Below are positions 5,629 to 53,149 of a stretch of 64,000 nt of DNA, in pieces. The first letter of the stretch is position 1. Each line of letters begins with the position of its first letter. The notes under the pieces were generated by a model, which ran no database searches, was not told where the DNA came from, and worked only from the letters and a program-made list of their open reading frames with translations. The position numbers and the translations under genes were made by a program. The stretch is from contig DATLYW010000031.1 of the NCBI GenBank assembly GCA_035574315.1, positions 68,574-132,573 on the forward strand, written 5' to 3'. This stretch comes from Candidatus Zixiibacteriota bacterium (lineage in GTDB: Bacteria; Desulfobacterota; Binatia; UBA9968).

Positions 5629-5668
5629 GGACGTTCAGGGCCCTGCGGCGGCGGCCGCCGCGAGCCGT

Positions 5669-5968: not shown

Positions 5969-5995
5969 GGTGTCCCTCGCTGGACGTCGCGCTGC

Positions 5996-6448: not shown

Positions 6449-6453
6449 CGCTC

Positions 6454-6869
6454 CTACCTCCTTCCCTCGCTGATCGCGAAGCGCAGCGCGGCCAGCGTGC
6501 GCGAGAGCAGCGTCAGGTTCGCCTCGTAGGCAAGCGCGTTCTCCGCCAGCAGGGCCATCTGCCGGTCGATGCCGACCGAGTTCCGGTCCAGGCGGGCCTC
6601 GCCGTGACGGTTATCGGGATACTCCGGCTCGTAAATCGCCGCCCGCCAGTCGACCCGCGGTGCCGAAGGCCCTTCGGCGGCCCGGCCCGTCTCGCCGCCC
6701 GCCGAAGGATCGCCCTCGGCTGCGGCCCGCAGGATCGATCCAAAATCGAGGTCGCGCGGGCGATAGCCGGGCGTGTCGGCGTTGGCGACGTTTGCGCTCA
6801 GGATCTCGTGGCGCGCGGCGCGAAGGCGCGCCGAGAGCTCGAGGAGCTGCTGGCTGAAACTGAAAAGCC

Positions 6870-6882
<13 letters not shown>
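6454..6882 (-). CDS. flgB: Flagellar basal-body rod protein FlgB; internal ATG of the longer ORF
   Basis: FlgB motif [18 protein letters not shown] and C-terminal [10 protein letters not shown]. Start MAGLRLFS chosen because the upstream part of the ORF overlaps the response-regulator gene. Confidence 0.8.
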
Positions 6883-8232
<1,350 letters not shown>

Positions 8233-8258
<26 letters not shown>

Positions 8259-9492
8259 CGCTTCGCGTCTCCTCGGCCGCAGGCAGGCAGACGTTGAACT
8301 GGCTGCCGCGTCCGGGCGTCGACAGAACTTCGATCGAGCCGTGGTGCGCGTGGACGATCTTGTGCGTCAGCGCCAGGCCAAGCCCGGTCCCGTTCTTTTT
8401 CGTGGTGAAGAACGGGTCGAAGATCCGCTCCCGGTTCTCCGGTGGAATGCCGCCGCCTTCGTCGATGACCTTGATCTCGACGGCCCGGTGGATCCGCCCG
8501 TTCATCGTGGCGAAAGGCGCCATTTCCGCTTTGAGTTGCACCCGCCCGCCCGCGGGCATCGCTTCCTTGGCGTTGACCACGAGGTTGAGCAGCGCCTGAA
8601 CCAGCAAACCGCGGTCGCCCCAGATCGGCGGCAGGCCGGGCTGAATGGCGAACGCGAGCGACCACGGCGGATCATTGAACAGCGGTACGCATTCCACGAG
8701 CAGGTCTTTCATCAGCAAAGGCACCGGCAGGAGATCGGGGGAGATCGACGGCTCCGCGGCGAAGCACAGCAGGCGCGAGAGCGTGGCGTGCAGCCGGCGC
8801 GCGGCCGCGAGGATCTCCTCGGCCGCCCGCCGCGGGTCCTCGACCGCATTTTCCTTGAGCAGCGATGCGTAGAGCTCGATCCCGCCGAGGGGATTTCGCA
8901 CCTGGTGCGCGAGCTCCGACGCCATCAGGCCTAGCGAAGCCAGCCGGCGCGTCCGCGCGGCCTCCGCTTCGAGGCGCTTCAGCGTGGTGGTGTCCTGGAA
9001 AATCACGACGTAGTCGCTGCGGGAGCCTCCCGCCGCCACCTCCGAGACCACGAAGTGGAGCGGCCTCACGATCCCGTCGGGTCCCTGAATCATCTTCTCG
9101 CATTCCAGAGGGAGAAAGCTCCTGTCGCCGCGCCGGAGCCTGGCGGCCAGTGTTTTTCCCAGCAGCTGCCCGGCGCGCTCCGCGTCGATTTCCCCCGCCA
9201 GCTCGTTCAAGCGCCGATTGGCGAACGTCGGCTGCAGATCGCGACCGAGGATGAGGACCCCGGCGTTGAGGCTTTCGAGCACCGAGAGGAGATACGCCCG
9301 GGCTTCTTCCCGTTCCCGCAGGCTCTTTTCGAGCTCGCGGTGCTGGCTTTCGAGCTCGCGCGTCAGGTGCTGAGCGCGCTCCTCGAGCCTGCGGTATTCC
9401 CGAATCAACTCCAGGCTGTTCTGATTGAACCAGCCGATGAGATGCTGGAGCGACTCGACCTCGATCTCCGGTTCGCTGACCGCAATAGTCAT
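8233..9492 (-). CDS. Cytoplasmic PAS sensor histidine kinase, FlrB/FleS-like
   Basis: H-box [15 protein letters not shown]1/G2 boxes ([23 protein letters not shown]), no TM segment. ATG at 9492 preceded by GGAGG. Confidence 0.8.
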
Positions 9493-9589
9493 TCCTTGCC
9501 TCCGTTCCCGCGCGGCGGACGCGTCGGCTTCTGCCCCGAGCAAGCTCCGTGCCACGGTTTTCACCGAGGGCACGAGAGTTACTCGGCTC

Positions 9590-10705
9590 TCAGGCGCATC
9601 CTCGCGTCTGCCCGTGAGCCGCGGCCACGGGCGGTGTCAAAGAAAAGTACCGCTCCGTCAGGATCCCGACGCCGCCGCCCGCGGGCGCCAGGCGCGGCTG
9701 CAGCATGCCCTTCTTGCGCAGGCGCTCGATCAACGTGGTGCGATTCAAACGGAGCAGCTCGGCGGCGGCGGTCTTGTTGCCGCGGCTGCGCTCGAGCGCC
9801 TGACGAATGAAGCCGTTTTCGATACTTTCGAGGACGCCGTCGAGGTCCACGCCCTCGTCGGGAAGCGATACCTCGGCGGCCGCCGCGCTCCGCCGCGCCG
9901 CCGGCTGGAGCACGTAGTCGGGCAGCTCGCCCACCCGGATCACCCCGTCCTCGTTCAGGACCACGAGCCGCTCGATGAGATTCTCCAGCTCGCGCACGTT
10001 TCCCGCCCATTCGTAGCTTTCGAGGGCCTGCATCGCCGCGGGATCGATCTCGAGAGGCCCTTTGCCCTTGCGCCGCCCGTGAAGCGAAAGGAAATGGCGG
10101 ACGAGAAGCGGGATGTCGCCCCTGCGCTCGCGCAGCGGCGGAAGCTCCAGCGGAAGCACGTTCAGACGATAGAAGAGATCCTCGCGAAACTTCCCTTCAC
10201 GAACCGCCGCCCGCAGGTCCCGGTTGGTTGCCGCGACGACCCGGACGTCAACCTGCACCGGATGGTCGCTTCCGAGCGGCTCGAACCGTCGCTCCTGCAG
10301 CACGCGCAGCAACTTCACCTGCAGCTTCGGGCTCATCTCGCCGATCTCGTCGAGGAACAAAGTCCCCCTGTGGGCGAGCTGGAAGCGGCCTTGCCGGGCG
10401 TGAATCGCGCCGGTGAACGCGCCGCGCACGTGGCCGAACAGCTCGCTTTCGAGCAGCTCCTCGGGAATGGCCCCGCAGTTGACCGGAACGAACGAGCTGT
10501 CGCGTCGATGGCTGAACTGGTGGATTGCACGGGCGGCAAGCTCCTTGCCGGTCCCGCTTTCACCGGTGATCAGGACCGTGGCGTCGCTTTGCGCCATCTT
10601 TCTGACGAGCTCCTGGATCCGACGCATGGCAAAGCTCTCCCCGACCATCGCCGCAAACGCTTCGCTGCCCCTTTCCTGCGCCGCTCCGAGAACCCGATTG
10701 TCCAT
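9590..10705 (-). CDS. Sigma-54 enhancer-binding protein lacking a receiver/sensor domain (AAA+ plus HTH only)
   Basis: Walker [23 protein letters not shown]-terminal HTH. Only ~15 aa precede the AAA+ domain. ATG at 10705 with GGGAGG SD; the annotated M at 10720 is a TTG. Confidence 0.8.
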   Translation of the reverse strand: MDNRVLGAAQERGSEAFAAMVGESFAMRRIQELVRKMAQSDATVLITGESGTGKELAARAIHQFSHRRDSSFVPVNCGAIPEELLESELFGHVRGAFTGAIHARQGRFQLAHRGTLFLDEIGEMSPKLQVKLLRVLQERRFEPLGSDHPVQVDVRVVAATNRDLRAAVREGKFREDLFYRLNVLPLELPPLRERRGDIPLLVRHFLSLHGRRKGKGPLEIDPAAMQALESYEWAGNVRELENLIERLVVLNEDGVIRVGELPDYVLQPAARRSAAAAEVSLPDEGVDLDGVLESIENGFIRQALERSRGNKTAAAELLRLNRTTLIERLRKKGMLQPRLAPAGGGVGILTERYFSLTPPVAAAHGQTRGCA

Positions 10706-11028
10706 TCGACCTCCCGTCAAAGCCTTGTCGCGTCAGAAAAACGTTGGCCTTGCCGCCGAGCAAAACAGAGGCCAGCAGGAACGAAGCCGCCGCCGCCGCG
10801 CCTAAGTTGCCGACATTTTCGCTGAAAGCTTCGCCCCGCGGCGTGCCGCAACGCCGATCGTGCGGTGGCAAAAATTCGACGCTTACCCGGGCGGCGTCGA
10901 GAAATTGTCGCCGGAGCGCGGCACGCAACAAAGCCTACGGAATAGGCCGCGGCCGCTGCGCCGGCGCGAAAAAAGCGCGGGCCGGGCGGCTGCTTCGCGG
11001 CAGGATCAGGGGCGGGCGGCGGGAGGGA

Positions 11029-11745
11029 TCACTCCTCGCCGTTGACCTTTTCGAGATATTGTCTCATCGCCTTGCGGCGAACGCGAATCGTTCTTTTTTC
11101 CACCTTGAGAATCCCTTTTGCGCGAAGGTCGCGCAGGCTGCGGGAAAGCGTTTCCGGGGCGGTCGAAACGGCCTGGGCGAGCTCCTTGTTGGAAAGCGGG
11201 ATCTCCACGACCTCTTCCTCCGAGCCGGCGCGGTCCAACAAGTTCACGAGATGCTCGAGCAACAGCGCCACCCGTTGCTCGACCGGCAGCCTTGCCATCC
11301 CGACGCGCCGGTAGAGGCGAAACAGATTCTCCGAGAAATGGCGCGCGAGCTGGAGAGCGAGCGCGGGATGGCGCTCGCCGAGCAGCCGGAGCTGACGCCA
11401 GCCCATCCGTCCGATCTCGACCTGTCCCCCGGTGGTGACCGCGGCACAGGGATGGCTCGCCGCGGCGCCGTCACTGACGCCGCTGATGATGCTGCAGGGG
11501 ACCGCTAGGTCCACGATCGCTTCCTCCCCTCCAGGCACAACCGTCGTCAATTTCACGACGCCGCGGCAAATGAGATAGACTCCGGTGACCGGCTCGCCCT
11601 GATGGAAGATGAACTTTCCCCTGCCGGCCACCGAGTAGCGGGCGAGCCCATCCGAAAATTCCTTGCAGGCTTTTTCCCCCACTCCCTTCAGGAACCCCTC
11701 CTCCCGGTGCGGGCAGTCGAGGCAGGTTTTCTGCATGCCGGACAT
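11029..11745 (-). CDS. Crp/Fnr-family transcriptional regulator, FNR-like (N-terminal Cys cluster; E--SR recognition helix)
   Basis: cNMP-binding fold plus C-terminal HTH containing ETLSRSLRDL (FNR-type E..SR). N-terminal C-x2-C...C residues at positions 8, 11 and 27. Confidence 0.8.
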   Translation of the reverse strand: MSGMQKTCLDCPHREEGFLKGVGEKACKEFSDGLARYSVAGRGKFIFHQGEPVTGVYLICRGVVKLTTVVPGGEEAIVDLAVPCSIISGVSDGAAASHPCAAVTTGGQVEIGRMGWRQLRLLGERHPALALQLARHFSENLFRLYRRVGMARLPVEQRVALLLEHLVNLLDRAGSEEEVVEIPLSNKELAQAVSTAPETLSRSLRDLRAKGILKVEKRTIRVRRKAMRQYLEKVNGEE

Positions 11746-13571: not shown

Positions 13572-13588
13572 TTGGCACCATCTTTGCT
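13572..13588 (+). promoter_or_regulatory. Sigma-54 (-24/-12) promoter TTGGCAC-CATCT-TTGCT
   Basis: Exact TGGCAC-N5-TTGC with GG-N10-GC spacing. Lies 75 bp upstream of the 67-aa ORF and 170 bp downstream of the activator/REC pair. Confidence 0.6.
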
Positions 13589-17247: not shown

Positions 17248-18111
17248 TCAGTTGACCGGCAGAAGCGACTCGACCGTGGCGATCTCGAGGGCGTCGTGGT
17301 TGCCGCTTTTCATCCGGGTCATGCGACTTTCCGCCTCGTTCATCAGCTCTGCCACGCTCCGCGGAGCCTTGGCACAGGCGATGGCGCTGATGAAAAAAGT
17401 GACGGGCTGAGCGTATCGGCGCCGCTCTTCCCGCAGAGCGCCCTGCATCTTTTCGAGAACGAAGCGAGCCCCTTCCGGTTCGGTGTTCGGCAGCAGCACC
17501 GCGAACGCCGTGCCCCCGATTCGCCCCACCAGGTCGGCCCGCGGAGCGTTCTTTCGTATCGTGTGGGCGATCGCGCAGAGCATCTGATCGCCGGTGACGT
17601 AGCCGAAACGGTGATTGATCCATTTGAAGCCTTCCACGTCGATGTAGGCGAGCGCGATGGGCTCGAGCCCGAACGCCCGGTCCATTTCGCGCGCCGCAAG
17701 CTCGTAAAAGGCGCGGCCGTTCGGCAACCCCGTGAGAAAATCGCGACTGGCGAGCTCGGAGATCTGGTCAAGCTTGGACCTGAGCTGCGACAGAGCGACC
17801 GCGACGGTCAGCAGAATCCCGGCGCGCATCAGAAAATTCCAAATCTCGATCAAGGAGGAAGAGTAGGAACGCTCCCCGACCTTGCCGACCACGGTCCAGA
17901 CGACGGCGCAGGCCAGCGCCATGCCGATTGCCGCCCGGCTCTCCACGAACCAGCTCACCAGCGCGATCGGGAGGAGATAAAAAAAATGGATGTGCGGCTC
18001 CCGGCCGGTCATGAAATCGAGCGCCCCCACCGTGGCCATCAGAAGGATTCCAAGCGCGAGGTTCGTGGCCTTGGTTCGACGCTCCAGAAATCTGAGAACT
18101 GTTTCCATCAT
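17248..18111 (-). CDS. Membrane-anchored GGDEF-domain protein with degenerate active site (GGTAF)
   Basis: 4-5 N-terminal TM helices. DFLTGLPNGRAF and DVEGFKWINHRFGYVTGDQ motifs present, but RIGGTAF replaces RxGG(D/E)EF. Confidence 0.8.
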   Translation of the reverse strand: MMETVLRFLERRTKATNLALGILLMATVGALDFMTGREPHIHFFYLLPIALVSWFVESRAAIGMALACAVVWTVVGKVGERSYSSSLIEIWNFLMRAGILLTVAVALSQLRSKLDQISELASRDFLTGLPNGRAFYELAAREMDRAFGLEPIALAYIDVEGFKWINHRFGYVTGDQMLCAIAHTIRKNAPRADLVGRIGGTAFAVLLPNTEPEGARFVLEKMQGALREERRRYAQPVTFFISAIACAKAPRSVAELMNEAESRMTRMKSGNHDALEIATVESLLPVN

Positions 18112-19172: not shown

Positions 19173-20918
19173 TCATTTCTTCCGGAAGATCAGGATCGAA
19201 TGGCCGATGGAAGCGACCGGCGCCTCGGCCCTGTAACCGGCGTAAAAGTCCTTCGGCAGATAAAGGCCCGCCAGGAAAGTGGCGCTGATCGCCACGTAAT
19301 CGGCCGGTTCGGAGGCGGCGTTACCGGACCACGGCGAGAAAACCAGGCTCCCGGGCAGCGGCGTCGCATCGATCCCGTAGGCGGCCGGATTGACCGTGCC
19401 GAAATAAGCGAGCTCGATTTTTCGGGCTTTGTGCTCGTCCATCCAGCGCTTGAGGCCCGGCAGGTCCTGCCCCCAGTCCAGGTTCGAGTCGACGAGATAC
19501 CTCGATCCGTTCCGCGGGCCGCCCGCCAGCTCGTTGAAGAACGCCAGGTAGTCCGGGTAAGTTTTGACCCAACCGGCCAATAGCCAAGCCGCCAGGAAAA
19601 GGAGCGCCCACCGTGCCCATCGGGACCCGCAACTCCAGAGCACCGCAACGCGTCCCCCGAGAAAAACAAAAAGAAACGGATAAACCGGCAGGATGTGGCG
19701 CAGTCCGATATTCAGCTTCGAGCCGGCCGCCGCGCTGAAAAAGACAAGCGCCGGAATCAACAAAAAAAGATCGTCCCGCGACGGCCGGAGGCGGCGAAAC
19801 GGCGAAAGGACGACCGAAATCGCGATCGCGGCCAAGACCGGCACCGGGGTCTTCACGAGGAACGCCACGGGAAAGTAGAGCCACGACCCGTGTTCCGAAA
19901 CCGCTCCCAAAAGATACGACGGCCGGTCGAATCGCCTTGTCGCGTCGAGCAGGCCGTAGAGCCAGGCTTCGGGTATTAGAAGGTATCTGGCGTTGAGCAG
20001 CGCCACCGTGCCGAGCCAGCTTTCTTCCGTCGCCAGGAGCCCGATCCGGAGCCGGCCCGTCTGACCGCCGACCGCATCGAAACGGAGGCCGTGAACCGCC
20101 CAGATCGCGCCGTACGCCGCGAAGACCGCCAGCGCCACCGCCGCGAGCACAAGAGCGATCTTGTGCCACGCGCTCGTAAGCACGCGCGGGGATGTGATCT
20201 CGGAGTACTGCGGTTGTGGGGAAAGCGCCAGCACGACGCCCAATAAGGCCCAGACGGGCAGGATCACCAGAAACGAGAACTTGGTGACGGCGGCGAGAGC
20301 GAAGCACAGCGCGGTTCCGAGCAAATTCGGCCAGGTCAGGCGGCACGAGGCCCTCCAGAAAGCGTACGTCCCCGCGAAGAAGAAGAGCGCGAACGGCACG
20401 TCGGTATGAATGATCGAGGAATGGGCCGTGATATTGGGATCGAGGCAGTAAAGCGAGAGCGCCGCCAGAGCAGCGAGCTCCCCGTAGAGGTCTCGTGCGC
20501 AGAGAAATACCAGAATGCCGAGACCGGCGGCCAGGCAGATCATGACCAACTTCGGGTAGGCGATAAACCCGGGTGTGCGGGCGTTGGCGAGGAAAAATCG
20601 ATCTGCCAAGTTCCAGCCGTATCGCTTCTTGACTTGCACGCGATCCCGCTCCCGCGCCGTAATGGAACTCGCGTCGACCCCGGTGGCGAGCAACGGCAGC
20701 GCCGCGAGGATCTTGGCGAGCGGCGGGTGCTCGGGATTCACCCGGAAATCGCCCCAACGGAGATGGGAATAGCCCGCGTAGAGATGGAGCGGTTCGTCGA
20801 ACGTCGGCGACTTTTGCAGGGCGGCCGAATAGGAAAGACCCATGAAGGCGAGCAACAGCAGTACGGCAGTCACCGTCCCGGAGAACGAAAAGATATCGCG
20901 GTCGCCGTTCCCCATCAA
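19173..20918 (-). CDS. GT-C glycosyltransferase, PMT/ArnT-like (family 39/83) polytopic membrane protein
   Basis: TFDEPLHLYAGY...FRVNPEHPPLAK N-terminal signature of dolichyl/undecaprenyl-phosphate-sugar dependent transferases, with ~11 TM segments. Confidence 0.7.
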   Translation of the reverse strand: MMGNGDRDIFSFSGTVTAVLLLLAFMGLSYSAALQKSPTFDEPLHLYAGYSHLRWGDFRVNPEHPPLAKILAALPLLATGVDASSITARERDRVQVKKRYGWNLADRFFLANARTPGFIAYPKLVMICLAAGLGILVFLCARDLYGELAALAALSLYCLDPNITAHSSIIHTDVPFALFFFAGTYAFWRASCRLTWPNLLGTALCFALAAVTKFSFLVILPVWALLGVVLALSPQPQYSEITSPRVLTSAWHKIALVLAAVALAVFAAYGAIWAVHGLRFDAVGGQTGRLRIGLLATEESWLGTVALLNARYLLIPEAWLYGLLDATRRFDRPSYLLGAVSEHGSWLYFPVAFLVKTPVPVLAAIAISVVLSPFRRLRPSRDDLFLLIPALVFFSAAAGSKLNIGLRHILPVYPFLFVFLGGRVAVLWSCGSRWARWALLFLAAWLLAGWVKTYPDYLAFFNELAGGPRNGSRYLVDSNLDWGQDLPGLKRWMDEHKARKIELAYFGTVNPAAYGIDATPLPGSLVFSPWSGNAASEPADYVAISATFLAGLYLPKDFYAGYRAEAPVASIGHSILIFRKK

Positions 20919-21030
20919 AGTATCAGTGGTTTGCTATGAACCGGCGGGCGCCGCTTGACCGGCTTGAACAGTTGCGCTTCACCTGCGGAACGAACTCCTC
21001 ACTAAGTCGACGCTCGACTTTTGCCGGTCG

Positions 21031-23466
21031 TCACCCCGTGCCGTGCGCGGCCGCGTCGAGCGCCCGCCTTCTGTTTCGCCGCCACACGCCAAGGGAAATC
21101 GCGGCGAGGACGAGGAGCGTCGTCATGGAGACGATCAGCCCGAGCCTGAACGATCGGGGCTCGTATTTGAACTCCACCACGTGCTCGCCCGCGCCCAGCG
21201 GGACGGCGCGAAAGAAGAGGTTGGCGCGATAGATTTCGGCTTCCTTTCCGTCGACGTACGCTTTCCACCCGGGGTAGTAGGAATCCGCAAGCACCAGGAT
21301 TCCCGCGCCGTCGAGCGAGGCCTGGACGGTGACGGAGCGGCTCCCGTAGCTCACGATCCTGGCGCTCGCGGCGGCCGCCCGCCGTTCGCCGAGCGGAGCC
21401 TCGGCGTTCAGGATCACCTCGGCCCGGGGATCGAAGCCGGGGGAGGCGAGCCGCTCCAGGACGCGCCTGGCGCGCGACTCGGCGACGCTATGGCCGACCA
21501 CGTAGGCGCGCGGGACCGGCTCCTGGATCTCGTAGAGCCAGGCGTGGTCCCCCGGGAAGCGCGCTAAAAGGACAAGCCCACCGGCGGTGAGGGGCTGGAA
21601 GGCGACAACGTACCTGACATTGAAGCTGCGCAGCAGTCTTGTTTGAGTCGAAGCGTCCAGCGGATTGGCGAAAGCGAGAAACTCCGAGTAGGGCCAGCGT
21701 GCCAATGCGTCGATCTCCTGAAAATAATCGAAACCGTGAAGGATGCCCTCATTCGGCAAGAGATAGCGTGAGAACAACGCCGTGGTCTCCTCGAAGGAAC
21801 GGCGTCCATGCACCACAAACCGGCTGGGGTGGAGGTTATGAGGAGCCGGATAATAGAAAAGGCGGTTTAAGCTCGGGTCGGGTCGCGGCAGAATACGGAA
21901 GCCGTTGCTGAGAAAGCCGGGATCCAGCGGAAAGAGAAGGCCGCGGTGAGTCCACGCGAGATCGACGAAAGCGACTGCCGCGAGAAGAGCGCCGAACAGC
22001 AACCGTCGGATCACGTTCTTGCTCGCCAACCAAAACAAGAGTAATACGCCGACGATCAGCACCGTCTGTCGCTCTATACCGGCGAGTACAGCGGCGGTGA
22101 TTTCCGATTGTATTCCGCTTCCCGGTGCAACGCCCGCTCTGGCCGAAACGCCTCGTGCGACGATTTCCGAATGGAAGCGAAAATAGACGTACGTCGCCAT
22201 ACACGCAACGCTCAACGCCGCCACCGCGAGTCCTTTCCTCCTCGAACCCGGCTCGTCGCGATCGAGAAACAAAACAAAGCCTTTCAGTGCGGCGTACAGC
22301 AGGAGCAGTTGCGTGATATAGAAAAACTTCTCCGGAAAGCGCAGCGCCCCGAGGAACCAGAGATGCGTATAGAGGAATGGGTAAAGCGGGGTATGACTTC
22401 CCAGCGCAAGCACTAAGGTAACGCCGATCAGGACCGCAAGAGGCAGCTTAGGGCGCCACGAATCGAGGAGCAGCCAGAACCAGACGCCGCAGATCGCCGC
22501 TGCGCCCATGTAGTAACTCACGAAGAACGGGGTTCCCCGCGCAAAAAAAAGCTTCAACCCGCTCGGCGCACTCGGGTCGGGCTCCTTGTCGGAAATCAGA
22601 AGGTTTACTAGACTCAGCGGCTCCAGGGACCAGGTCATCGCTTCTCCGACTGGAATCGCCCGGCGGCGCCGCGATTCCAGAAACAGCTCGGCGGTCGGCG
22701 CAAGTTGGACCATCGAGAGCGTCACGACCACAAGATTCGCGGTGACCAGGGTCACTGCCATACGGCTCCAGGAAACAGCCGGCAGGGATCGTTTGAGCCT
22801 CAGGCCATCGAGCGCTACCAAAGCCGTGTTCAAAGCGTAGATCTCAGGGGATCCAGCCAAAAAACCGATCGTGGAGAGAAGGCCGAACGACAGAAAAGCT
22901 GTCCAGGAACCTGCGCATACCGCTCGCTCCCAGAAAACCAGCAGCCATGGCAGCCAAACCGCCGCCTGAAAGTGATTGAGCAGGTTTGTCAAAGAAACGG
23001 TCGTACCGCCAAACGCAAAAAGCAACGCCGCAACGACCGCGAGACCATGGGAATAACCCCACCTGCGTGCGAGGTGATAGGCGCCGACGGCAGCAACCAG
23101 AAAATGGAAAACGAACAGAATCCGTATCCCGTCGAAGAACGAGACCGCAAGAAAGATAAAATGCGGTGGATAGAAGACCCCGGACTGAAAACTGGCCAGA
23201 ACCGGAAATCCCGTCGCCATATGGCTATCCCAGAGGGGAAGGTTTCCTGAGCGATAGCTTTCGAATAGCGTAAACCGAAGCGGGTAGAAGTAAGTGCTGA
23301 GATCGCGGAAAAACGGCACTGACTCGCGGAAGATCAAATCCTGGCAGAACCAGGAGACAAGTAAGGTCAGTGCGATGATACCAAGGCGGTCGCCATCGAA
23401 GGCGGCCGCGAGTTGCTCGCGCTTCATGGAGTTGGGAGATTCAGGAATCGAGGGACGCGAAAACAA
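21031..23466 (-). CDS. YfhO-family GT-C membrane glycosyltransferase-like protein (start uncertain; ATG at 23427 also possible)
   Basis: 811 aa with many TM helices. N-terminal FFRDLSTYFYPLRF...LPLWDSHMATGFP matches the YfhO family. Confidence 0.65.
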   Translation of the reverse strand: MFSRPSIPESPNSMKREQLAAAFDGDRLGIIALTLLVSWFCQDLIFRESVPFFRDLSTYFYPLRFTLFESYRSGNLPLWDSHMATGFPVLASFQSGVFYPPHFIFLAVSFFDGIRILFVFHFLVAAVGAYHLARRWGYSHGLAVVAALLFAFGGTTVSLTNLLNHFQAAVWLPWLLVFWERAVCAGSWTAFLSFGLLSTIGFLAGSPEIYALNTALVALDGLRLKRSLPAVSWSRMAVTLVTANLVVVTLSMVQLAPTAELFLESRRRRAIPVGEAMTWSLEPLSLVNLLISDKEPDPSAPSGLKLFFARGTPFFVSYYMGAAAICGVWFWLLLDSWRPKLPLAVLIGVTLVLALGSHTPLYPFLYTHLWFLGALRFPEKFFYITQLLLLYAALKGFVLFLDRDEPGSRRKGLAVAALSVACMATYVYFRFHSEIVARGVSARAGVAPGSGIQSEITAAVLAGIERQTVLIVGVLLLFWLASKNVIRRLLFGALLAAVAFVDLAWTHRGLLFPLDPGFLSNGFRILPRPDPSLNRLFYYPAPHNLHPSRFVVHGRRSFEETTALFSRYLLPNEGILHGFDYFQEIDALARWPYSEFLAFANPLDASTQTRLLRSFNVRYVVAFQPLTAGGLVLLARFPGDHAWLYEIQEPVPRAYVVGHSVAESRARRVLERLASPGFDPRAEVILNAEAPLGERRAAAASARIVSYGSRSVTVQASLDGAGILVLADSYYPGWKAYVDGKEAEIYRANLFFRAVPLGAGEHVVEFKYEPRSFRLGLIVSMTTLLVLAAISLGVWRRNRRRALDAAAHGTG

Positions 23467-23524
23467 AAAGGGGTGAGTCGCCAGGACCCACCCCTCAGAA
23501 AAACCTACGCGCGAAGTGGGTCCT

Positions 23525-23908
23525 TTACGGGCAAGGTCCTCCTGTAATCTGTCCCGTGTTGCTCTCGAAAGTCCACGTAGTGGTACCGCAATTGTTGTGG
23601 GAAGCGGACAGCAAGAAGGTATTCGTACCGACGGTGGCGCCGATATTGACGTCAGTGCTCTTGTTAAAGCCTGATGGGTTACTACTGCTAAGGGTGCCGC
23701 TTCGGTACGTGAAGTTCTGGGTGAAATACGCTTCCTCGGCCGTCGCGGCGTTCCTCAGGTCCGCCTTGACCTGCGCTTCGTAGCCGCGCTTGCGATACTC
23801 CGAGAACTGCGGAATCGCGATCGCCGCGAGAATTCCGATAATTGCAACGACCACCAGGAGTTCGATCAACGTGAACCCCGACTGACTCTGTAATGGTGTT
23901 TTCTTCAT
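23525..23908 (-). CDS. pilA: Type IVa pilin PilA (prepilin with class III leader)
   Basis: MKKTPLQSQSG/FTLIELLVVVAIIGILAAIAIPQF cleavage/methylation motif; C-terminal Cys pair (C...C) forming a disulfide loop; GGGAG SD. Confidence 0.9.
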   Translation of the reverse strand: MKKTPLQSQSGFTLIELLVVVAIIGILAAIAIPQFSEYRKRGYEAQVKADLRNAATAEEAYFTQNFTYRSGTLSSSNPSGFNKSTDVNIGATVGTNTFLLSASHNNCGTTTWTFESNTGQITGGPCP

Positions 23909-24271
23909 ATAGTTGAGCTCCCTTTCCTGTGCGTGGTAGATTCTTTGGTGCCCGACCCCAAGCAACTCGTCGATCTTCGATCCCCCACCAAACCCAACGT
24001 CGATGACTTCATGCTCTTCTCACCTCCTTCTCAACCCGTGGGCTATGATGGGTTCGAAGTTGCCAGGAGGCTGCAGCAAAACGGAGGCCATGGCTTCTCC
24101 GTCCATCGCTCCACGGCGACGCGGGGGAACCGAAGCCTCCTTGTATTCCTTTCACTTCCAGTGGGTTACGACTCGGAAAATGGGTCTTTCTCGGCACCGG
24201 TGCATGCGGGAGCCCTAGCGAGGTATGGACATAATTCCGTTTTATTGAACCCGACAAGGTGACAAAAATTG

Positions 24272-26314
24272 TTACTGCGGCTCTTCGGTTTCGCCGTGAC
24301 CGTGCCCCTTGGTATTGAGCATGCCGTATTTCTCCAGGCGGTGGCGGAGGGATCGATAATTGATGCCCAGAATCTCGGCAGCGCGCTTCTGCACCCCGTT
24401 GGCCCGTTTGAGGGCGCCCAAAAGGATGCATTTTTCGTGGGTTTCGAGCTCAGCGTCGAGAGAAAGCCCCTTGCTGAAGAAAAGATCGGCGCCGCCGGGC
24501 GCGGTTTTCTCGAAAAGCTCCGCTTCTTCGGCAATCGGGGTTCCCTTGACGTGCGCGGGAAGGTCGTCCTCCGTGAGCGCCGCAGAGGTCGCGACCGCGA
24601 CCGCATGCTCCATGATGTTCTCCAGCTCGCGCACGTTTCCCGGGTAGGAATAATTCACCAGATGCATCAGCGCGCCGCTCGAGATCTCCTCGATCTTCTT
24701 CTGCTGCAGCTCGGTGAACTTGCGGAAGAAATAGTGCACGAGCGCCGGGATGTCCTCCTTGCGGTTTCGAAGCGGAGGCATCGTGATCTGCACGACGTTC
24801 AGCCGATAGAAAAGATCCTCGCGAAAACGCCCCTCCTCCATCTCCCTTCTCAGGTCCTTGTTGGTCGCCGAGATCACGCGGACGTCGACCTTGACCGGCT
24901 TGTTACCCCCCACCGGCGTGAAGGTCCTGTCCTGGAGCACACGCAGTAGCTTGACCTGGAGATGAAGCGGCAGCTCGCCCACCTCGTCGAGAAAAATCGT
25001 TCCCTGATCTGCCTGCTTGAACAGACCGGGATGATCGGCAACCGCCCCGGTGAACGCCCCTCGGACATGGCCGAAGAGCTCGCTCTCGATCAGATTCTCG
25101 GGAATCGCGCCGCAGTTGACGGCGACGAACGGCTTGTTCTTCCGCGGCCCGTTGAGGTGGATGGCGCGCGCGACGAGCTCCTTGCCGGTGCCGCTTTCCC
25201 CGATGATCAGGACGTTAGTGCTGCTCGAAGCGACCTTTTGCACCAGCTGGTTGATCTTTTCGATTCCGGGGCTCCTGCCGATCACTCCTTCGAAGTGGAA
25301 CTCGCCCGGTCCCCGGGCCTCCTGCTCCTTCGCCTTGCGCAGCTCCTCTTCGAGCCGGAGCTTCTCCTCCATTTCTTTCTGTTTGGTGATGTCGTCGAAG
25401 ATCGAAAGATAGCCGATCAACTGCTGCCCGGCGTCGCTGAGGGGAGCGAGCGTCAGGCGCAGCTGCTTCTGCGCCCCCTGCGCCGTCGCGAACGAGATCT
25501 CGTCGGCGACCACGCGTGGCCCGCTCTTCGATCCGTCGAAGCGATACGAGAGTCCGGGGAAAATCTCGTCGAGTCGCTTTCCACGGACCGTTTCCTCGGC
25601 CAGTCCGGTCAGGTTCTGCGCTTGCACGTTGAAATAGTTGACGCGACCGCCAACGTCCGTGATGGCGATTCCGCTGCCGACTCCCTGGAGCAGCGCCTGC
25701 TTCAACGCGTCGAGCTCCTGATAATCGAGCTGCTTCGCCTTGAGCGCCTTTTCCGTCTCGGCGAGCTTCTTCGCCAAAAACCCGCCGAGGCCCGCGATCG
25801 CGAAGAAACTTCCCGCGTTGAAGACGTGAGGCATCACCGCGGCCCACGAGGCGGGCACGCCTGCGCCGCGGTGCAACGTGTAGGCCCAGCTGAGCAGCGC
25901 CACGTAACAGAGGCTCGAGAAGATCGCCGTGAAAAACGCCCCGCGGTAAAAGAGCAGGATGGCGCCGTTCATGACCGCCAGGTTGTAGAGGAACGGAAAC
26001 GGGCTCGCGAAATCCCCCGTGATCCAGATGATGCCGGTGATGAGCAGGACGTCGAAATCGACCTGCAGGTGGGCGAAGAAGCGCAGATCCTTGATCCGCG
26101 GCAGGGCGAGGGCCGAGATCACGGAAATCGCGTACGCGAGGATCAGCGGAACCGAGAGCGTGTAGAGAAACCGGAGATCGCTTTGCTGGTTGAAGAAATG
26201 GAACAGCGCCGTGGCGCCGAGAAAAAAAGAGACGATGACCACTCGGAGAAAGAGCAGCCATCGCATCTTTTCGGTCAAATCCTTGCGCTCGTCAATCACT
26301 TTGCGACCGCCCAC
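24272..26314 (-). CDS. Membrane-bound sigma-54 activator: PilS-like 6-TM domain + PAS + AAA+ (GAFTGA) + HTH. Start is GTG at 26314 or ATG at 26266
   Basis: Six N-terminal TM helices, PAS region, Walker [16 protein letters not shown]-terminal HTH. No HisKA/HATPase and no receiver. Confidence 0.8.
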   Translation of the reverse strand: MGGRKVIDERKDLTEKMRWLLFLRVVIVSFFLGATALFHFFNQQSDLRFLYTLSVPLILAYAISVISALALPRIKDLRFFAHLQVDFDVLLITGIIWITGDFASPFPFLYNLAVMNGAILLFYRGAFFTAIFSSLCYVALLSWAYTLHRGAGVPASWAAVMPHVFNAGSFFAIAGLGGFLAKKLAETEKALKAKQLDYQELDALKQALLQGVGSGIAITDVGGRVNYFNVQAQNLTGLAEETVRGKRLDEIFPGLSYRFDGSKSGPRVVADEISFATAQGAQKQLRLTLAPLSDAGQQLIGYLSIFDDITKQKEMEEKLRLEEELRKAKEQEARGPGEFHFEGVIGRSPGIEKINQLVQKVASSSTNVLIIGESGTGKELVARAIHLNGPRKNKPFVAVNCGAIPENLIESELFGHVRGAFTGAVADHPGLFKQADQGTIFLDEVGELPLHLQVKLLRVLQDRTFTPVGGNKPVKVDVRVISATNKDLRREMEEGRFREDLFYRLNVVQITMPPLRNRKEDIPALVHYFFRKFTELQQKKIEEISSGALMHLVNYSYPGNVRELENIMEHAVAVATSAALTEDDLPAHVKGTPIAEEAELFEKTAPGGADLFFSKGLSLDAELETHEKCILLGALKRANGVQKRAAEILGINYRSLRHRLEKYGMLNTKGHGHGETEEPQ

Positions 26315-26351: not shown

Positions 26352-27569
26352 CTAAACCAGCGACCCCAACTGGAAGATGGGCAAGTACATCGAAATCACC
26401 AGACCTCCCAGAATCACCCCTAAAACCACCATGATCAGCGGTTCCATCAACGCGGTGAGGTTGTTCACCGCGTCGTCCACTTCCTCCTCGTAGAGATCCG
26501 CGACCTTCTTGAGCATGGCGTCGAGGCCGCCGGTGCTCTCGCCTACCGCCACCATCTGGCAAACCATCGGCGGGAAGATCCTGCTCTCGCGCAGCGGCTC
26601 GGCCACGGTTTTTCCCTGGCTGATGCTTACCCGGCTGTCGAGGATCGCCTTCTCGACGACCTTGTTCCCCGCGGTCTTGGCAGTGATCGCCAGACCGTCC
26701 AGGATCGGAACTCCGGAGCTCAAGAGCAGCGACATGTTCTGCGAGAACCGGGCGACGGCGACCTTGCGCAGCAGATCGCCGAAGATCGGCAGGCGCAGCA
26801 ACAGGCGATCGATCGTCATCCGGCCGTGCTCGGTCCGGTAGTACATCCGGACCGCCGCGATCACGGCGACGACGGCACCGAGCACGTAGTACCACGACTT
26901 CACGAACCAGTTGCTGAGGTTGATCGTGACCTGGGTCGGAACCGGCAGCGCTTTTCCCATGCTGCCATAGAGCTCGGAAAAAACCGGAATGACGAAGATC
27001 AGCAGGATCGCCACGACGATCGCCGCGACCACCACGATCGTGCACGGGTAGATCATCGCCCCCTTGACCTTTTTCCTGAGCTTGGTCGCCTTCTCGATGA
27101 ACATCGCCACGCGGTTGAGGATCGTGTTGAGCACACCGCCCGCTTCGCCCGCCTCGACCATGCTGGTGTAGAGGTCATCGAAGATCTTCGGATGCTTTTT
27201 CAGCGCCTCGCCGAGCGTCGATCCGCTTTCGACGTCCTGCCGGATCGTCCGCACGGTGTTGCGCAGCACCTTGTTCTCCGACTGCTCCGCGAGGATGTCG
27301 AGACACTGAACGATCGGCAGCCCGGCGTCGATCATCGTCGCGAACTGCCGGGTGAACAGCGAGACATCCCGGGGTTTGACCTTCTCCCCGAGCCCGGGGA
27401 TCCGAATTTCTCTGCTGAGGCCGGTCCCTTTCTCGCGGATGCGGTTCGGAAGCGGCCGTATGCGCCGGTCGCGCAGCAGTTGAAAGACCGCATCCACGCT
27501 CGGCGCTTCAAGCTCCCCCCTCATGGTTTTCCCTTGAGCGGTTTTCCCTTCCCACACGTAGATCGGCAT
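26352..27569 (-). CDS. pilC: Type IV pilus assembly platform protein PilC (GspF family)
   Basis: 405 aa with duplicated GspF domain and three TM regions. Confidence 0.9.
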   Translation of the reverse strand: MPIYVWEGKTAQGKTMRGELEAPSVDAVFQLLRDRRIRPLPNRIREKGTGLSREIRIPGLGEKVKPRDVSLFTRQFATMIDAGLPIVQCLDILAEQSENKVLRNTVRTIRQDVESGSTLGEALKKHPKIFDDLYTSMVEAGEAGGVLNTILNRVAMFIEKATKLRKKVKGAMIYPCTIVVVAAIVVAILLIFVIPVFSELYGSMGKALPVPTQVTINLSNWFVKSWYYVLGAVVAVIAAVRMYYRTEHGRMTIDRLLLRLPIFGDLLRKVAVARFSQNMSLLLSSGVPILDGLAITAKTAGNKVVEKAILDSRVSISQGKTVAEPLRESRIFPPMVCQMVAVGESTGGLDAMLKKVADLYEEEVDDAVNNLTALMEPLIMVVLGVILGGLVISMYLPIFQLGSLV

Positions 27570-27641: not shown

Positions 27642-29369
27642 TCAGAAACCCAGGGAGAAAACCGAACCGAATCCCTTGTCGCTGTCGGTCACGCGGATCG
27701 TTTCCTCGACCGTGGTCAAGCCCTCGCGGACCTTCTTGAGCGCGCTCATGCGCAACGTGCTCATGCCCAGCTTGACCGCCTCGCGCTTGAGCTCGATCGC
27801 GGAGGCACCGCGCAGCACCAGCTCCTTCAACGGCTCCTCCATCACCATCACCTCGTAGATCGCCAGCCGGCCCCGGTACCCGGTGCCGTTGCAGTTGGCG
27901 CAGCCCCTCCCGCGATGCGCCTCGAAATCGCCGTGAGCCTCCGCAGGGTCCACGCCGAGGCCCACCAGGACCTCCGGGCTCACCTCCACGCGCTCCTTGC
28001 AATTCTCGCAAATCCGGCGCACGAGGCGCTGGGCGGCCACCAGGTTCACCGACGAGGTCAGCAGGAACGGCTCCACCCCCATGTTCACGAGCCGGTCGAG
28101 GGTAGACGGGGCGTCGTTGGTGTGCAGCGTGCTCAGGACCAGATGGCCGGTCAGAGCAGCCTTGACGGCGATCTGTGCGGTTTCGAGATCGCGGATTTCG
28201 CCGACCATGATGATGTCGGGATCCTGGCGGAGGAAGGAGCGCAAGCAGGCCGCGAACGTGAGCCCGATCTGCTCGCGCACCTGGACCTGATTGATCCCCA
28301 CGAGGTTGTACTCGACCGGATCCTCGGCGGTCGAGATGTTGACCTCGGGCTTGTTCAGCTCGGAAAGCGCGGAATAGAGCGTCGTCGACTTGCCGCTTCC
28401 CGTCGGGCCGGTGATGAGGATCATCCCGTAGGGCTTGTGAATCGCCTCCTTGAACGCTTCCAGCGTCGGCGGATCGAAGCCGAGCTTGGTCATGTCGAGC
28501 TGAAGATTCGACTTGTCGAGCAGCCGCATGACGACCTTTTCGCCGAACAGCGTGGGCAGCACCGAGACGCGGATGTCCAGCTCGCCGCTGTTGCCCATCT
28601 TCAGCTTGATCCGGCCGTCCTGCGTCAGGCGCCGCTCTGCGATGTCCAGCCCGGCCATCACCTTGAGGCGGGAAACCAGCGGGTTCTTGAGCCGCAGCGG
28701 CGGGCTCATGATCTCCTGCAGCACGCCGTCCACCCGAAAACGGACCCGGAACACCTTCTCGTACGGTTCGATGTGAATGTCGCTGGCGCGTCGCTTGGCC
28801 GCATCCGCCAGGATCGCGTTGACCAGGGTCACCACGGGCGCTTCCATGGTGGCCTGTTGCAGCTCCTGGAGGTTCACGTCGTCCTGTTCGTGGATGACCT
28901 CCATGTCGCTGTCGCCGAATTTTTTCAGCACCTCGTCGTAGCTCACCCCGCCGAACTTGTGGTCGAGCGCTTTCTTGATCGCCGAAGGCGACGCCAGCGC
29001 GACGCGCACGCCGTAGCCGGTTATGAACTTGACCTCGTTGATGGCGACCAGGTCCGTCGGGTCGGACATGGCGATGGTGAGGGTGGAGCCGATGAGCTTG
29101 AGCGGAATCAGCTGGTGCTTCTGGACAAGCTGTGGAGGGACGAGGTTGAAGACGGAATCGTCGATCTCCGAGGGAACCGGATCGACCTTTTCGATACCGA
29201 ACTGCCTGGCGAGGAAATCGGTGAGCGCCTCCTCGGTGACGAAGCCCAGCCGCACCAGCTCGCGCATCACGCTGGAGCCGTTTTCCCGTTCCTTTTCCTG
29301 GGCTTTTTGGAGCTGCTCGCGGGAGACGACCCCCCCGCGCACCAACAGCTCTGCGACGCGTGCTTCCAT
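27642..29369 (-). CDS. pilB: Type IV pilus assembly ATPase PilB (GspE family)
   Basis: Walker A GPTGSGKST, tetracysteine C-x2-C...C-x2-C, N-terminal GspE_N domain. Confidence 0.9.
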   Translation of the reverse strand: MEARVAELLVRGGVVSREQLQKAQEKERENGSSVMRELVRLGFVTEEALTDFLARQFGIEKVDPVPSEIDDSVFNLVPPQLVQKHQLIPLKLIGSTLTIAMSDPTDLVAINEVKFITGYGVRVALASPSAIKKALDHKFGGVSYDEVLKKFGDSDMEVIHEQDDVNLQELQQATMEAPVVTLVNAILADAAKRRASDIHIEPYEKVFRVRFRVDGVLQEIMSPPLRLKNPLVSRLKVMAGLDIAERRLTQDGRIKLKMGNSGELDIRVSVLPTLFGEKVVMRLLDKSNLQLDMTKLGFDPPTLEAFKEAIHKPYGMILITGPTGSGKSTTLYSALSELNKPEVNISTAEDPVEYNLVGINQVQVREQIGLTFAACLRSFLRQDPDIIMVGEIRDLETAQIAVKAALTGHLVLSTLHTNDAPSTLDRLVNMGVEPFLLTSSVNLVAAQRLVRRICENCKERVEVSPEVLVGLGVDPAEAHGDFEAHRGRGCANCNGTGYRGRLAIYEVMVMEEPLKELVLRGASAIELKREAVKLGMSTLRMSALKKVREGLTTVEETIRVTDSDKGFGSVFSLGF

Positions 29370-29389: not shown

Positions 29390-29418
29390 ATTATCCGAAA
29401 AGACAGGAAAACTGTCAA
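29390..29418 (-). promoter_or_regulatory. Sigma-70-like promoter TTGACA-N17-GATAAT upstream of pilB
   Basis: Reverse complement of 29390-29418 reads TTGACAGTTTTCCTGTCTTTTCGGATAAT, about 20 nt before the pilB ATG, inside an AT-rich patch. Confidence 0.4.
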
Positions 29419-52920: not shown

Positions 52921-53077
52921 CTTGTGCACATCCTGTGCGCAAACCGTGGCCGCAAACGGGGATAACCACCTGCCTTTGCTTCCCGCGCCGGGCCAGACCC
53001 AAAAAGCGGGCGCTGCGGTCCGGCACTAGGAACAAGCCAAGTCGGCGCCAGCGCTAGATTCTCAGCGCTTGTTGCTC

Positions 53078-53125: not shown

Positions 53126-53149
53126 AAGGATAAGGGTCGGGAGGTTCCT

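Follow-up and report, generated by a model that had tools for sequence, protein, structure and literature searches.

The PilS–PilR pairs of Pseudomonas aeruginosa, Myxococcus xanthus, Geobacter sulfurreducens, Kingella and commensal Neisseria (Nps/Npa) are among the described systems closest to the protein studied here. They share with it the sensor module, the output module (a sigma-54 AAA+ domain with a Fis-type helix–turn–helix, HTH), the genomic slot after pilC and the kind of gene targeted, which encodes a type IVa pilin and has a sigma-54 promoter. They differ from it in that our protein is one polypeptide, with an activator that spans the membrane several times. PilS binds PilA via its transmembrane (TM) segments for pilin autoregulation (PMC6058289), and PilS R24 and pilin E5/P22 are named as residues involved (PMC6528607). 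The closest natural counterpart in print is Rsp of N. gonorrhoeae, described as a pilS/pilR (nps/npa) fusion with the PilS membrane receptor at the N terminus and the PilR output at the C terminus (Carrick et al. 2000, as cited in PMC10269533 and PMC6528607). At the level of this published description, its layout agrees with that of our fusion. Rsp is a lineage-specific deletion remnant from which control of pilE is reportedly lacking (PMC6528607). Unlike Rsp, the fusion in Binatia is class-wide, under purifying selection, and accompanied by a conserved sigma-54 promoter and a candidate binding site; given the phylogenetic distance, it is near certain that the two arose independently. To our knowledge, N. 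gonorrhoeae has no functional RpoN.

Two further families bear comparison. The one-component regulators ToxR, TcpP, CadC and their relatives (PMC10269533) bind DNA while anchored in the cytoplasmic membrane, and for them too it must be asked how the promoter is reached. Regulators of the ToxR/CadC type are bitopic, with an N-terminal winged helix (OmpR-type or other), a periplasmic sensor and sigma-70 promoters, whereas the fusion begins with six TM helices that have hardly any periplasmic loops between them, ends in a Fis-type HTH and carries an AAA+ motor that runs on ATP and serves sigma-54. It resembles them in combining TM segments with a DNA-binding domain in a single chain, with the domain order reversed. 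The receiver-less enhancer-binding proteins (EBPs) NifA, NorR, DmpR/XylR, TyrR and PrpR, together with the NtrC1/DctD class, which is controlled by a coiled coil, have the same succession of sensory domain, helical linker and AAA+ domain, and intramolecular repression or control of ring assembly would be expected in these as in the fusion. All of them are soluble, however, and none has an integral membrane sensor. A search of the open-access literature returned no functional PilS–PilR fusion and no membrane-integral sigma-54 activator, only Rsp, an absence that is no proof.

The fusion gene lies at positions 24272..26314 (−) of the 64-kb stretch of DNA that we analysed (the window), in the same-strand order pilB, pilC, fusion, pilA. 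The extension ATPase gene pilB (27642..29369, −; Pfam T2SSE, E 5e-145) was assigned by domain match and synteny. The platform protein gene pilC (26352..27569, −; Pfam T2SSF, E 5e-70) is syntenic in all related loci, and its stop codon lies 37 nt before the fusion start. The major type IVa pilin gene pilA (23525..23908, −; Pfam N_methyl and NCBIfam pilin matches) has its true ATG at 23908 and encodes a 127-residue prepilin with an 11-residue leader (N terminus MKKTPLQSQSG|FTLIELL); the mature pilin carries E5 and P22. The initial annotation had placed the fusion exactly where pilS–pilR would be, between pilC and pilA, and this placement is borne out by relatives that run pilB-pilT-pilC-pilS-pilR. 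Its proposal that the neighbourhoods of related pilA genes be surveyed was also rewarding: the same fusion recurs with a pilin gene 300–400 nt downstream in 28 related loci, and the order PPDK-pilB-pilC-fusion-pilA-YfhO is conserved. One locus (L032) has the fusion and no pilin gene within 1.5 kb, and adjacency of fusion and pilA is retained in nearly every lineage. No separate pilS–pilR pair was found within the window. The only other kinase/regulator pair, at 8233-9573 and 6870-8258, was considered for this role and rejected, as it lacks a 6TM_PilS domain and has flagellar-gene neighbours; its regulator is 39–41% identical to PilR.

The protein of 680 residues is encoded by an unbroken open reading frame, with two candidate start codons (GTG at 26314 or GTG at 26299); an identical NCBI protein (P0001) is annotated with 675 residues. 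Its Pfam architecture comprises a PilS sensor half and a PilR output half. The sensor half begins with a 6TM_PilS membrane module (residues 11–189, 25748..26284, −; PF25323, E 4.5e-16) and continues with a PAS domain (residues 205–313, 25376..25702, −; Pfam PAS, PAS_9 and PAS_4). After a junction (residues 314–343, 25286..25375, −) follow the sigma-54 interaction domain Sigma54_activat (residues 344–510, 24785..25285, −; PF00158, E 2.3e-73), the AAA+ lid AAA_lid_14 (residues 516–593, 24536..24769, −; PF25601, E 3.6e-24) and a Fis-type HTH_8 domain (residues 623–663, 24326..24448, −; PF02954, E 8e-11). Walker A (GESGTGKE at 372), GAFTGA (419–424) and Walker B (IFLDE at 440) are all present in the AAA+ domain. 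Hydropathy and the positive-inside rule, applied as the initial annotation had suggested, agree with its six-TM sensor and give an N-in, C-in topology with periplasmic loops of at most 15 residues and no hydrophobic segment beyond residue 200. In the AlphaFold model, helices extend over residues 2–211 and a PAS β-sheet core over 215–308, with an inter-domain geometry that is unreliable (pTM 0.49). Foldseek matched the AAA+ domain to those of FleQ, FlrC and NtrC1 (TM 0.85–0.92), and a search of the PDB for a solved full-length analogue matched the AAA+ part alone (TMq ≤0.35).

That annotation had also read the gene as a PilS-like sensor with PAS joined directly to a sigma-54 AAA+/HTH activator, with neither HisKA/HATPase nor receiver. 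Both statements stand: the domains are those listed above, with 30% identity to PilS and 57% to PilR, and a Pfam search of the protein at E ≤ 0.01 found no HisKA, HATPase_c or Response_reg. Two genuine partners encoded at a related locus (L052), where the cluster runs pilB-pilT-pilC-pilS-pilR and the PilR (P0385) follows pilC-pilS, served for BLASTP alignment. Residues 33–320 of the fusion align to PilS residues 35–332 (30% identity), an alignment that covers the PAS domain, and residues 339–670 align to PilR residues 139–461 (57% identity); PilS homology therefore stops at 320 and PilR homology begins at 339. From these alignments we conclude that the fusion equals pilS–pilR minus the kinase core and the receiver. 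It has the six-TM domain and TM1 arginine of a PilS, but since HisKA/DHp and HATPase_c are missing and PilS homology ends at residue 320, it is not a PilS kinase. Likewise it has a PilR-type AAA+/HTH output in a pil cluster next to the pilin gene, but it is not a response regulator, since Response_reg is missing and PilR homology starts after the receiver. With DHp/HisKA, HATPase_c and receiver all missing, the protein has no phosphotransfer or phosphatase step. By sequence features it is an EBP: an AAA+ domain with Walker A/B, GAFTGA, a C-terminal HTH and a target sigma-54 promoter. ATP-dependent oligomerization and open-complex formation would be expected of it.

Could an assembly error or frameshift have merged separate pilS and pilR genes? 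The initial annotation had raised this possibility and pointed to positions 25300-25800 as the place to look. No frameshift is present there; the reading frame is continuous, homologues are colinear over residues 6–680, and no kinase or receiver coding remnant occurs in any frame of 24272-26314. The identical 675-residue protein lies on a 165-kb NCBI contig, and a fusion protein of about 680 residues recurs in independent JGI, ENA, NCBI and Logan assemblies. Each of the 120 best database relatives has the architecture, and so have 34 species-level genomes; almost all carry the label Binatia or Deltaproteobacteria, and the family comprises more than 120 protein clusters with identities down to ~37–45%. 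On the continuity of the frame and this recurrence we rejected an artefact, whose probability we regard as negligible. To judge from these sequences, the fusion is a lineage-wide architecture and not a singleton.

A different concern is that the gene is an inactive leftover of pilS–pilR, with pilA controlled otherwise. There is a precedent in the nps/npa fusion of N. gonorrhoeae, which according to PMC6528607 (citing Carrick 2000) apparently does not control pilE. The fusion in Binatia, however, has been kept across the 34 genomes and more than 120 clusters with its catalytic motifs intact: among 53 homologues neither Walker A nor Walker B varies, and in the GAFTGA motif of these 53 proteins G419, T422 and A424 are invariant and F421 and G423 are kept in at least 90%. 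All modules have changed little at non-synonymous sites (pN ~0.15 versus a saturated pS of ~0.75), with the lowest pN in HTH_8 (0.04–0.08) and the highest in the linker. The sigma-54 promoter and palindrome described below are conserved together with the gene. Motif invariance and a pN far below pS in all modules led us to reject a decaying, Rsp-like remnant, which we consider very improbable.

The origin of the two halves is reflected in their sequences. R24, the TM1 arginine, is invariant in 11 of 11 fusions and 78 of 78 PilS kinases, and R24, Q84, D88, G100 and S104 are all invariant or nearly so in the fusions as in PilS kinases; as far as conservation reveals, the sensor module is under PilS-like constraint. 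At the other end, the C terminus of the fusion is 53–57% identical to genuine PilR, versus 39–51% for the other two EBPs of the window. In neighbour-joining (NJ) trees the fusion C termini cluster with PilRs and those two EBPs fall outside. The trees suggest at least two fusion events, and the architecture probably arose more than once, although their internal branches are very short and carry no bootstrap values, so the number of origins is not fixed by them.

We then considered the DNA elements around pilA. A 17-bp palindrome, GTAACAATTTTTGTCAC (24259..24275, unstranded), overlaps the TAA stop of the fusion and is a candidate upstream activating (binding) site. It is unique in the window, with 0.06 chance matches expected; at up to two mismatches the window contains no second copy, only degenerate relatives upstream of a FleQ-like gene. 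With at most two mismatches it occupies the same position in 29 of 29 close loci, and a distant fusion locus (L049) has a perfect copy beside a consensus sigma-54 promoter. Loci L050 and L051 lack it, as do two loci whose fusions are ~44% identical (L032 and L034). Binding at two or more sites is common among EBPs, whereas upstream of pilA only one palindrome is visible.

On the minus strand at 24075..24090, at a conserved aligned position, lies the −24/−12 element TGGCCTCCGTTTTGCT, the putative sigma-54 promoter of pilA. A pilA gene lacking such a promoter would have spoken against the proposed regulation; instead, TGG[CT]-N7-TTGC is found at the aligned position in 29 of 30 loci, at a median of 195 nt past the fusion stop, and distant fusions also have a sigma-54 promoter. 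Perfect TGGCAC-N5-TTGCW sites number three, versus 0.02 expected, and two further EBPs of the window adjoin flagellar genes; the three perfect sites and these EBPs indicate that sigma-54 is in use in the source genome. An IHF-like site between palindrome and promoter shows only moderate conservation, and the window's own copy is degenerate. In the pilA 5′ leader, a block of conserved alignment columns, AAGGAGGTGA (24020..24029, −), lies ~57 nt past the start of the −24 element in 22 of 30 loci. An Rfam search over 23300-24400, this element included, gave no match, and no conserved small open reading frame was found after the AAGGAGG leader element. An intrinsic terminator with a 12-bp stem followed by a T-run (23468..23496, −) stands after pilA. 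Upstream of pilB, a sigma-70-like promoter, TTGACA-17-GATAAT (29390..29418, −), was recognized by an 11/12 consensus match alone; it probably drives pilB-pilC-fusion.

Taken together, we favour the reading, to which we assign a probability of about 0.68, that the fusion is a working one-component descendant of PilS–PilR, a membrane-integral EBP that activates the adjacent pilA in cis. It would have arisen by an in-frame loss of the PilR receiver and of the DHp and catalytic domains that make up the PilS kinase core, leaving the PilS six-helix sensor, PAS domain and signalling helix joined via ~15 flexible residues to the PilR AAA+ domain and HTH. The protein is probably expressed from the pilB-pilC operon and kept in the inner membrane, where an HTH dimer probably binds the 17-bp palindrome over the gene's own stop codon; that the palindrome is its binding site, and that the fusion activates pilA, we infer. 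From ~185 bp upstream, it would then open the pilA sigma-54 promoter with the energy of ATP. To do so, a ring of polytopic membrane proteins would have to present its GAFTGA face to RNA polymerase. Because the gene it controls is in cis and both regulator and pilin enter the membrane as they are translated, the promoter would be expected close to the membrane, and tethering would then be less of an obstacle.

The junction bears on whether the protein acts from the membrane at all. It consists of a PilS-type signalling helix (residues 310–333) and a short disordered linker; in the AlphaFold model the helix likewise spans 310–333, and pLDDT falls below 50 at 334–336. The membrane form might instead be a precursor, with an active soluble AAA+-HTH protein arising by proteolysis in the 334–348 linker or by internal initiation; in that case the membrane part would govern release and not ring assembly. 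Such a mechanism would be suited by the linker, which is disordered, poorly conserved and placed exactly where the PilS-derived helix gives way to the AAA+ domain. N-terminally truncated EBPs (PspF-type, truncated NtrC1/DctD) are typically constitutively active, which would favour it further, and the window itself encodes a domain-less EBP (9590-10720). Proteolytic release is also known for other membrane-tethered transcription factors, going by the reference list of PMC10269533. Against this, no protease gene conserved at the locus was found, nor, at the junction, any conserved internal start preceded by a ribosome-binding site. Regulators of the ToxR/CadC type show that a protein can bind DNA from the membrane (PMC10269533), and irreversible release is a poor fit to fast homeostatic control of the PilS type. 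We regard release as quite improbable and retain the membrane-integral activator as the preferred reading.

How would such an activator be switched? The on/off decision would be made without phosphotransfer, with the state of the membrane domain passing along the TM6–PAS–helix axis to the assembly of the active AAA+ ring. By analogy with PilS, the most likely input would be unassembled pilin occupying the membrane domain: a high pilin pool would hold the fusion off and pilin depletion would turn it on. The choice of pilin as signal and the direction of regulation are both taken from this analogy. The fusion could alternatively be a functional pilA activator in which the 6TM/PAS unit reads membrane state, redox, a small ligand or a partner protein, given that PAS domains commonly bind cofactors or ligands and that no signal is known for Neisseria Nps or for other PilS homologues (PMC6528607). 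However, all fusions retain the TM residues of PilS kinases, including the arginine implicated in the PilA interaction, the pilin keeps E5 and P22, and the two genes stay next to each other in nearly every lineage; we therefore think a different signal rather unlikely. More broadly, we tentatively propose, as a possibility of less than even odds, that the Binatia class and at least one other lineage have independently turned a PilS–PilR phosphorelay into a polytopic membrane EBP that converts the pilin level of the inner membrane directly into ATP-driven opening of a sigma-54 promoter, on DNA kept at the membrane next to the EBP's own gene.

If this broader proposal is true, the fusion would be the first natural integral-membrane AAA+ activator of sigma-54. 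It would also be a natural experiment in which phosphotransfer proves dispensable for PilS-type signalling: a two-component pathway collapsed to one component with sensor, output and target unchanged, so that the part played by the phosphorelay could be told apart from the part played by the sensor. It raises the question of how a ring-forming AAA+ activator works when each subunit sits on six membrane helices, which bears on EBP assembly, on the search for DNA by membrane-tethered regulators and on how PilS transmits its signal. For PilS signal transmission, we know of no structure. Together with a defined palindrome and a sigma-54 promoter, a membrane sensor encoded by one gene would be an attractive part for reconstitution and for synthetic circuits. 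Finally, the fusion would offer a first point of entry to the control of pili in Binatia, uncultured bacteria that are abundant in soils and sediments.

We examined the reading frame at window 24272-26314 (minus strand) and found one uninterrupted ORF of 680 codons, placed exactly as the initial annotation had it. A Pfam search of the whole protein identified, in order, a PilS-like six-helix membrane domain (residues 11-189; E 4.5e-16), a PAS domain (205-313), a sigma-54 interaction AAA+ domain (344-510; E 2e-73), an AAA+ lid (516-593) and a Fis-type HTH (623-663), and no HisKA, HATPase_c or receiver domain. The proposed arrangement, a six-TM PilS-like sensor and PAS joined to a sigma-54 AAA+/HTH activator with neither kinase nor receiver modules, was thus confirmed. 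In the motor, Walker A (GESGTGKE, residue 372), the GAFTGA loop (419) and Walker B (440) are intact, and the fusion has every feature of a sigma-54 enhancer-binding protein (EBP) that can be tested by sequence. Hydropathy and positive-charge distribution predict six TM helices, as anticipated, with both termini inside and very short periplasmic loops; hydropathy gave no hydrophobic segment beyond residue 200. An AlphaFold model based on 53 homologues (mean pLDDT 81.9) comprises a helical membrane bundle, a single long helix running from TM6 (residue 157) to residue 211 and entering the PAS domain, a PAS core (215-308), a further helix (310-333), a short disordered stretch (334-348) and then the AAA+ fold, the only part for which a structure search returned solved relatives. 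These analyses establish, at the level of sequence, that the protein is integral to the membrane and combines a PilS sensor with an intact sigma-54 motor of the PilR type.

The best 120 database relatives (73-100% identity, about 680 aa) share the same Pfam set and derive from independent NCBI, JGI, ENA and Logan assemblies; together with the uninterrupted ORF, this shared architecture excludes an assembly artefact. Their annotation is generic only ('sigma 54-interacting transcriptional regulator' or 'response regulator PilR'). Scanning species-representative genomes yielded 34 loci with full-length or contig-truncated fusion matches, most of them labelled Candidatus Binatia or 'Deltaproteobacteria' MAGs, in which the order PPDK-pilB-pilC-fusion-pilin-YfhO-like(-PMT-like) is kept. 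The survey of related genomes therefore places the same fusion beside a pilin gene across the scanned loci. The one exception to this adjacency is L032 (8109-9600), a Binatia fusion about 44% identical to ours with pilB-pilC upstream, where the next 1.5 kb downstream contain no pilin gene. Two loci, L021 (8375-9329) and L034 (8441-9320), have a tandem pair of pilin genes after the fusion, and in L021 the pair is near-identical. The carriers are uncultured. A 100%-identical NCBI protein, P0001, is labelled 'candidate division Zixibacteria bacterium', and its close relatives (L001-L034) are almost all labelled Candidatus Binatia, Deltaproteobacteria or Syntrophobacter MAGs, with a few odd labels such as Chloroflexota and Udaeobacter. 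The source MAG is probably a member of the Binatia that carries a questionable taxonomic label.

Between the fusion and five relatives, non-synonymous differences amount to about 0.15 per site, compared with about 0.75, a saturated value, at synonymous sites. The contrast is seen in the membrane, PAS, AAA+ and HTH modules taken one by one, with the HTH under the strongest constraint, and an alignment of 53 sequences, reaching down to 37% identity, shows no variation at any catalytic residue. This constraint on every module, the invariant catalytic residues and the conserved locus exclude an inert remnant.

We traced the two halves separately. Searching the membrane domain alone against 1.84 billion cluster representatives returned, among the best 150 matches, 87 histidine kinases, 8 sigma-54 fusions and 55 fragments; Pfam identified seven long matches as fusions and three of about 570 aa as 6TM_PilS-PAS-HisKA-HATPase kinases. 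R24 is invariant in kinases (78/78) and fusions (11/11), and in both groups Q84, D88, G100 and S104 hardly vary. For the C-terminal half, the nearest relatives with a receiver share 53-57% identity over about 330 residues. These relatives are genuine PilRs, since both P0385 and P0344 come after a 6TM_PilS kinase in the order pilB-pilT-pilC-pilS-pilR, which agrees with the claim that the fusion occupies the slot of pilS-pilR. Pairwise alignment matched fusion residues 33-320 to PilS 35-332 and 339-670 to PilR 139-461, placing the junction between residues 320 and 339. The fusion thus corresponds to pilS-pilR minus the kinase core and receiver. The other two EBPs in the window are less PilR-like than the fusion (39-51% identity to PilR), and an NJ tree places them outside the group formed by fusions and PilRs.

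Fusions at a greater distance (37-46% overall identity) are found in the same genomic slot: P0134 (pilB-pilB-pilT-pilC-fusion-pilA-ABC transporter), P0148 (PPDK-...-pilB-pilC-fusion-pilin) and P0137 (pilT-pilC-fusion-pilin-YfhO). The output half of P0134 is 57-65% identical to canonical PilRs versus about 50% to the Binatia fusions, and its sensor half groups with kinases in an NJ tree. Of the fusions in the C-terminal tree, 56 make up a single clade and six lie among canonical PilRs. At least two independent fusion events are likely, a wording we keep no stronger because the NJ trees have a star-like shape and no support values.

The gene lies between pilC and pilA, as initially described: pilB (27642-29369) and pilC (26352-27569) are upstream, the latter by 37 nt, and the type IVa pilin gene pilA follows, all on the minus strand. 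The true pilA start is the ATG at 23908, and its product begins MKKTPLQSQSG/FTLIELL. Upstream of pilB is a sigma-70-like promoter (11/12) and downstream of pilA a strong terminator, so the regulator is probably expressed on the pilB-pilC transcript, with pilA under a sigma-54 promoter of its own. Two large polytopic GT-C-type proteins are encoded 3' of pilA (19173-23466, minus strand), one YfhO-like (21031-23466) and one PMT_2-like (19173-20918). This pair follows pilA in nearly all relatives; it recalls the precedent of the pilin-linked TfpW/TfpO genes, and both proteins are candidate pilin glycosyltransferases.

The 363-nt gap between fusion and pilA contains a match to the sigma-54 -24/-12 promoter motif, TGGCCTCCGTTTTGCT (24075-24090, minus strand). 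It is the best-conserved block in an alignment of 30 orthologous intergenic regions, with TGG[CT]-N7-TTGC in 29/30, at a median of 195 nt past the regulator stop and about 157 nt before the pilin ATG; the sigma-54 promoter on which the proposed role depended is thus present. The second conserved block is a 17-bp palindrome, GT(A/G)ACAA-N3-TTGT(C/T)AC, which reads GTAACAATTTTTGTCAC at 24259-24275, its left arm including the regulator TAA stop codon. It occurs once in the 64-kb window (0.06 expected) and, allowing at most two mismatches, at the same position in 29/29 close loci that reach the gene 3' end, 18 of them perfect. Its retention in L001, L018 and L019, where the stop codon has shifted, shows that it does not reflect a coding constraint. 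The same search of related loci did not find it in L032 and L034. In L049, a distant fusion of probably independent origin, a perfect GTGACAATTATTGTCAC spans the TGA stop and a textbook TGGCACGTCCCTTGCT lies 72 nt past the palindrome end (88 nt start to start); in L050 and L051, sigma-54 promoters accompany TGTCA-containing repeats, and the full palindrome is absent. The fusion is thus conserved together with a sigma-54 promoter and a palindrome before pilA, and a 17-bp dyad about 185 bp upstream of such a promoter is classic EBP-site geometry. Its TGTC core recalls elements that have been called hallmarks of the sites bound by PilR in P. aeruginosa (PMC6058289), and we infer from sequence that the fusion HTH binds this dyad.

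Between palindrome and promoter, many relatives have an IHF-like TAAnCTnTTGAA about 100 nt past the fusion stop, and relatives also have a palindromic TTACGTAA about 40 nt past it; both are degenerate in the window. Geobacter PilA production needs IHF (PMC7962754). The pilA 5' leader carries a conserved AAGGAGGTGA (24020-24029, minus strand), shared by 22/30 related loci and placed some 57 nt past where the -24 element starts, with roughly 100 nt left to the pilA ATG. We found no conserved ORF behind it, and Rfam returned no match; it could stabilise the mRNA in the manner of a Shine-Dalgarno-like element, or it could bind a regulator.

This genome clearly uses sigma-54: the window has three perfect TGGCAC-N5-TTGCW sites (264-279 and 9539-9554, minus strand; 13573-13588, plus strand) versus 0.02 expected, and a FleQ/FleS/FleR-like set beside fliF, fliG and fliI. 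The flagellar block (890-10720, minus strand) comprises fliI (890-2881), fliG (2978-4009) and fliF (4006-5628), preceded by a REC-AAA+-HTH regulator (6870-8258), a cytoplasmic HisKA/HATPase kinase (8233-9573) and a FleQ-like AAA+-HTH regulator lacking an N-terminal domain (9590-10720); the last three constitute a FleQ/FleS/FleR-like cascade. Before the FleQ-like gene lies a sigma-54-type site, TGGCCTCTGTTTTGCT (10759-10774, minus strand), 15/16 identical to the pilA promoter, and about 90-140 bp upstream of it are degenerate relatives of the pilA palindrome, GGCGACAATTTCTCGACG and CGTCGAATTTTTGCCAC (10865-10912). These elements may reflect pilus-flagellum cross-regulation; fleSR is under PilR control in P. 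aeruginosa (PMC6058289). A GGDEF diguanylate cyclase (17248-18111) and a Crp/Fnr-family regulator (11029-11745), both on the minus strand, separate the flagellar and pilus clusters. The window also contains dnaA (51580-52920) and dnaN (53150-54256) on the plus strand (51580-54256), and so adjoins the chromosomal replication origin.

We propose that the HTH binds the palindrome and that the fusion would activate pilA from the membrane. Its membrane domain would read the pool of unassembled pilin, as does P. aeruginosa PilS, which senses it by direct TM-segment contact (PMC6058289) involving PilS R24 and pilin E5/P22 (PMC6528607). All three residues are present here, R24 in the fusion and E5 and P22 in the window pilin. 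The signal could also be something other than pilin, and activity could instead reside in a soluble fragment freed at the disordered linker. In the proposed mechanism, the signal would pass down the TM6-PAS-helix axis and control AAA+ ring assembly, resembling receiver-less or coiled-coil-controlled activators such as NtrC1/DctD, NifA and DmpR. The regulator gene lies next to its target and each encodes a membrane protein, which should keep the pilA promoter close to the membrane during expression, an argument also made for ToxR/CadC-type regulators (PMC10269533).

The fusion would work like PilS plus PilR, yet belongs to neither family because it lacks the defining kinase feature of the one and receiver feature of the other. 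To our knowledge, known receiver-less EBPs are soluble, whereas the fusion is membrane-integral. The transmembrane transcription regulators known so far are laid out the other way round and work at sigma-70 promoters (PMC10269533). In Neisseria gonorrhoeae, Rsp is described as a fusion of nps/pilS and npa/pilR that apparently does not control pilE (PMC6528607; PMC10269533), and a full-text literature search found no other published PilS-PilR chimera. Nor did the open-access full-text search find a description of a functional PilS-PilR fusion or an integral-membrane sigma-54 activator. The protein is not categorically new, since both halves, the target and even the fusion idea have precedents. 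The structural observation in the initial annotation is confirmed and its interpretation supported: the fusion is a conserved and apparently functional one-component form of PilS-PilR. It is robust, lineage-wide and apparently undescribed, and it raises a sharp, testable mechanistic question.
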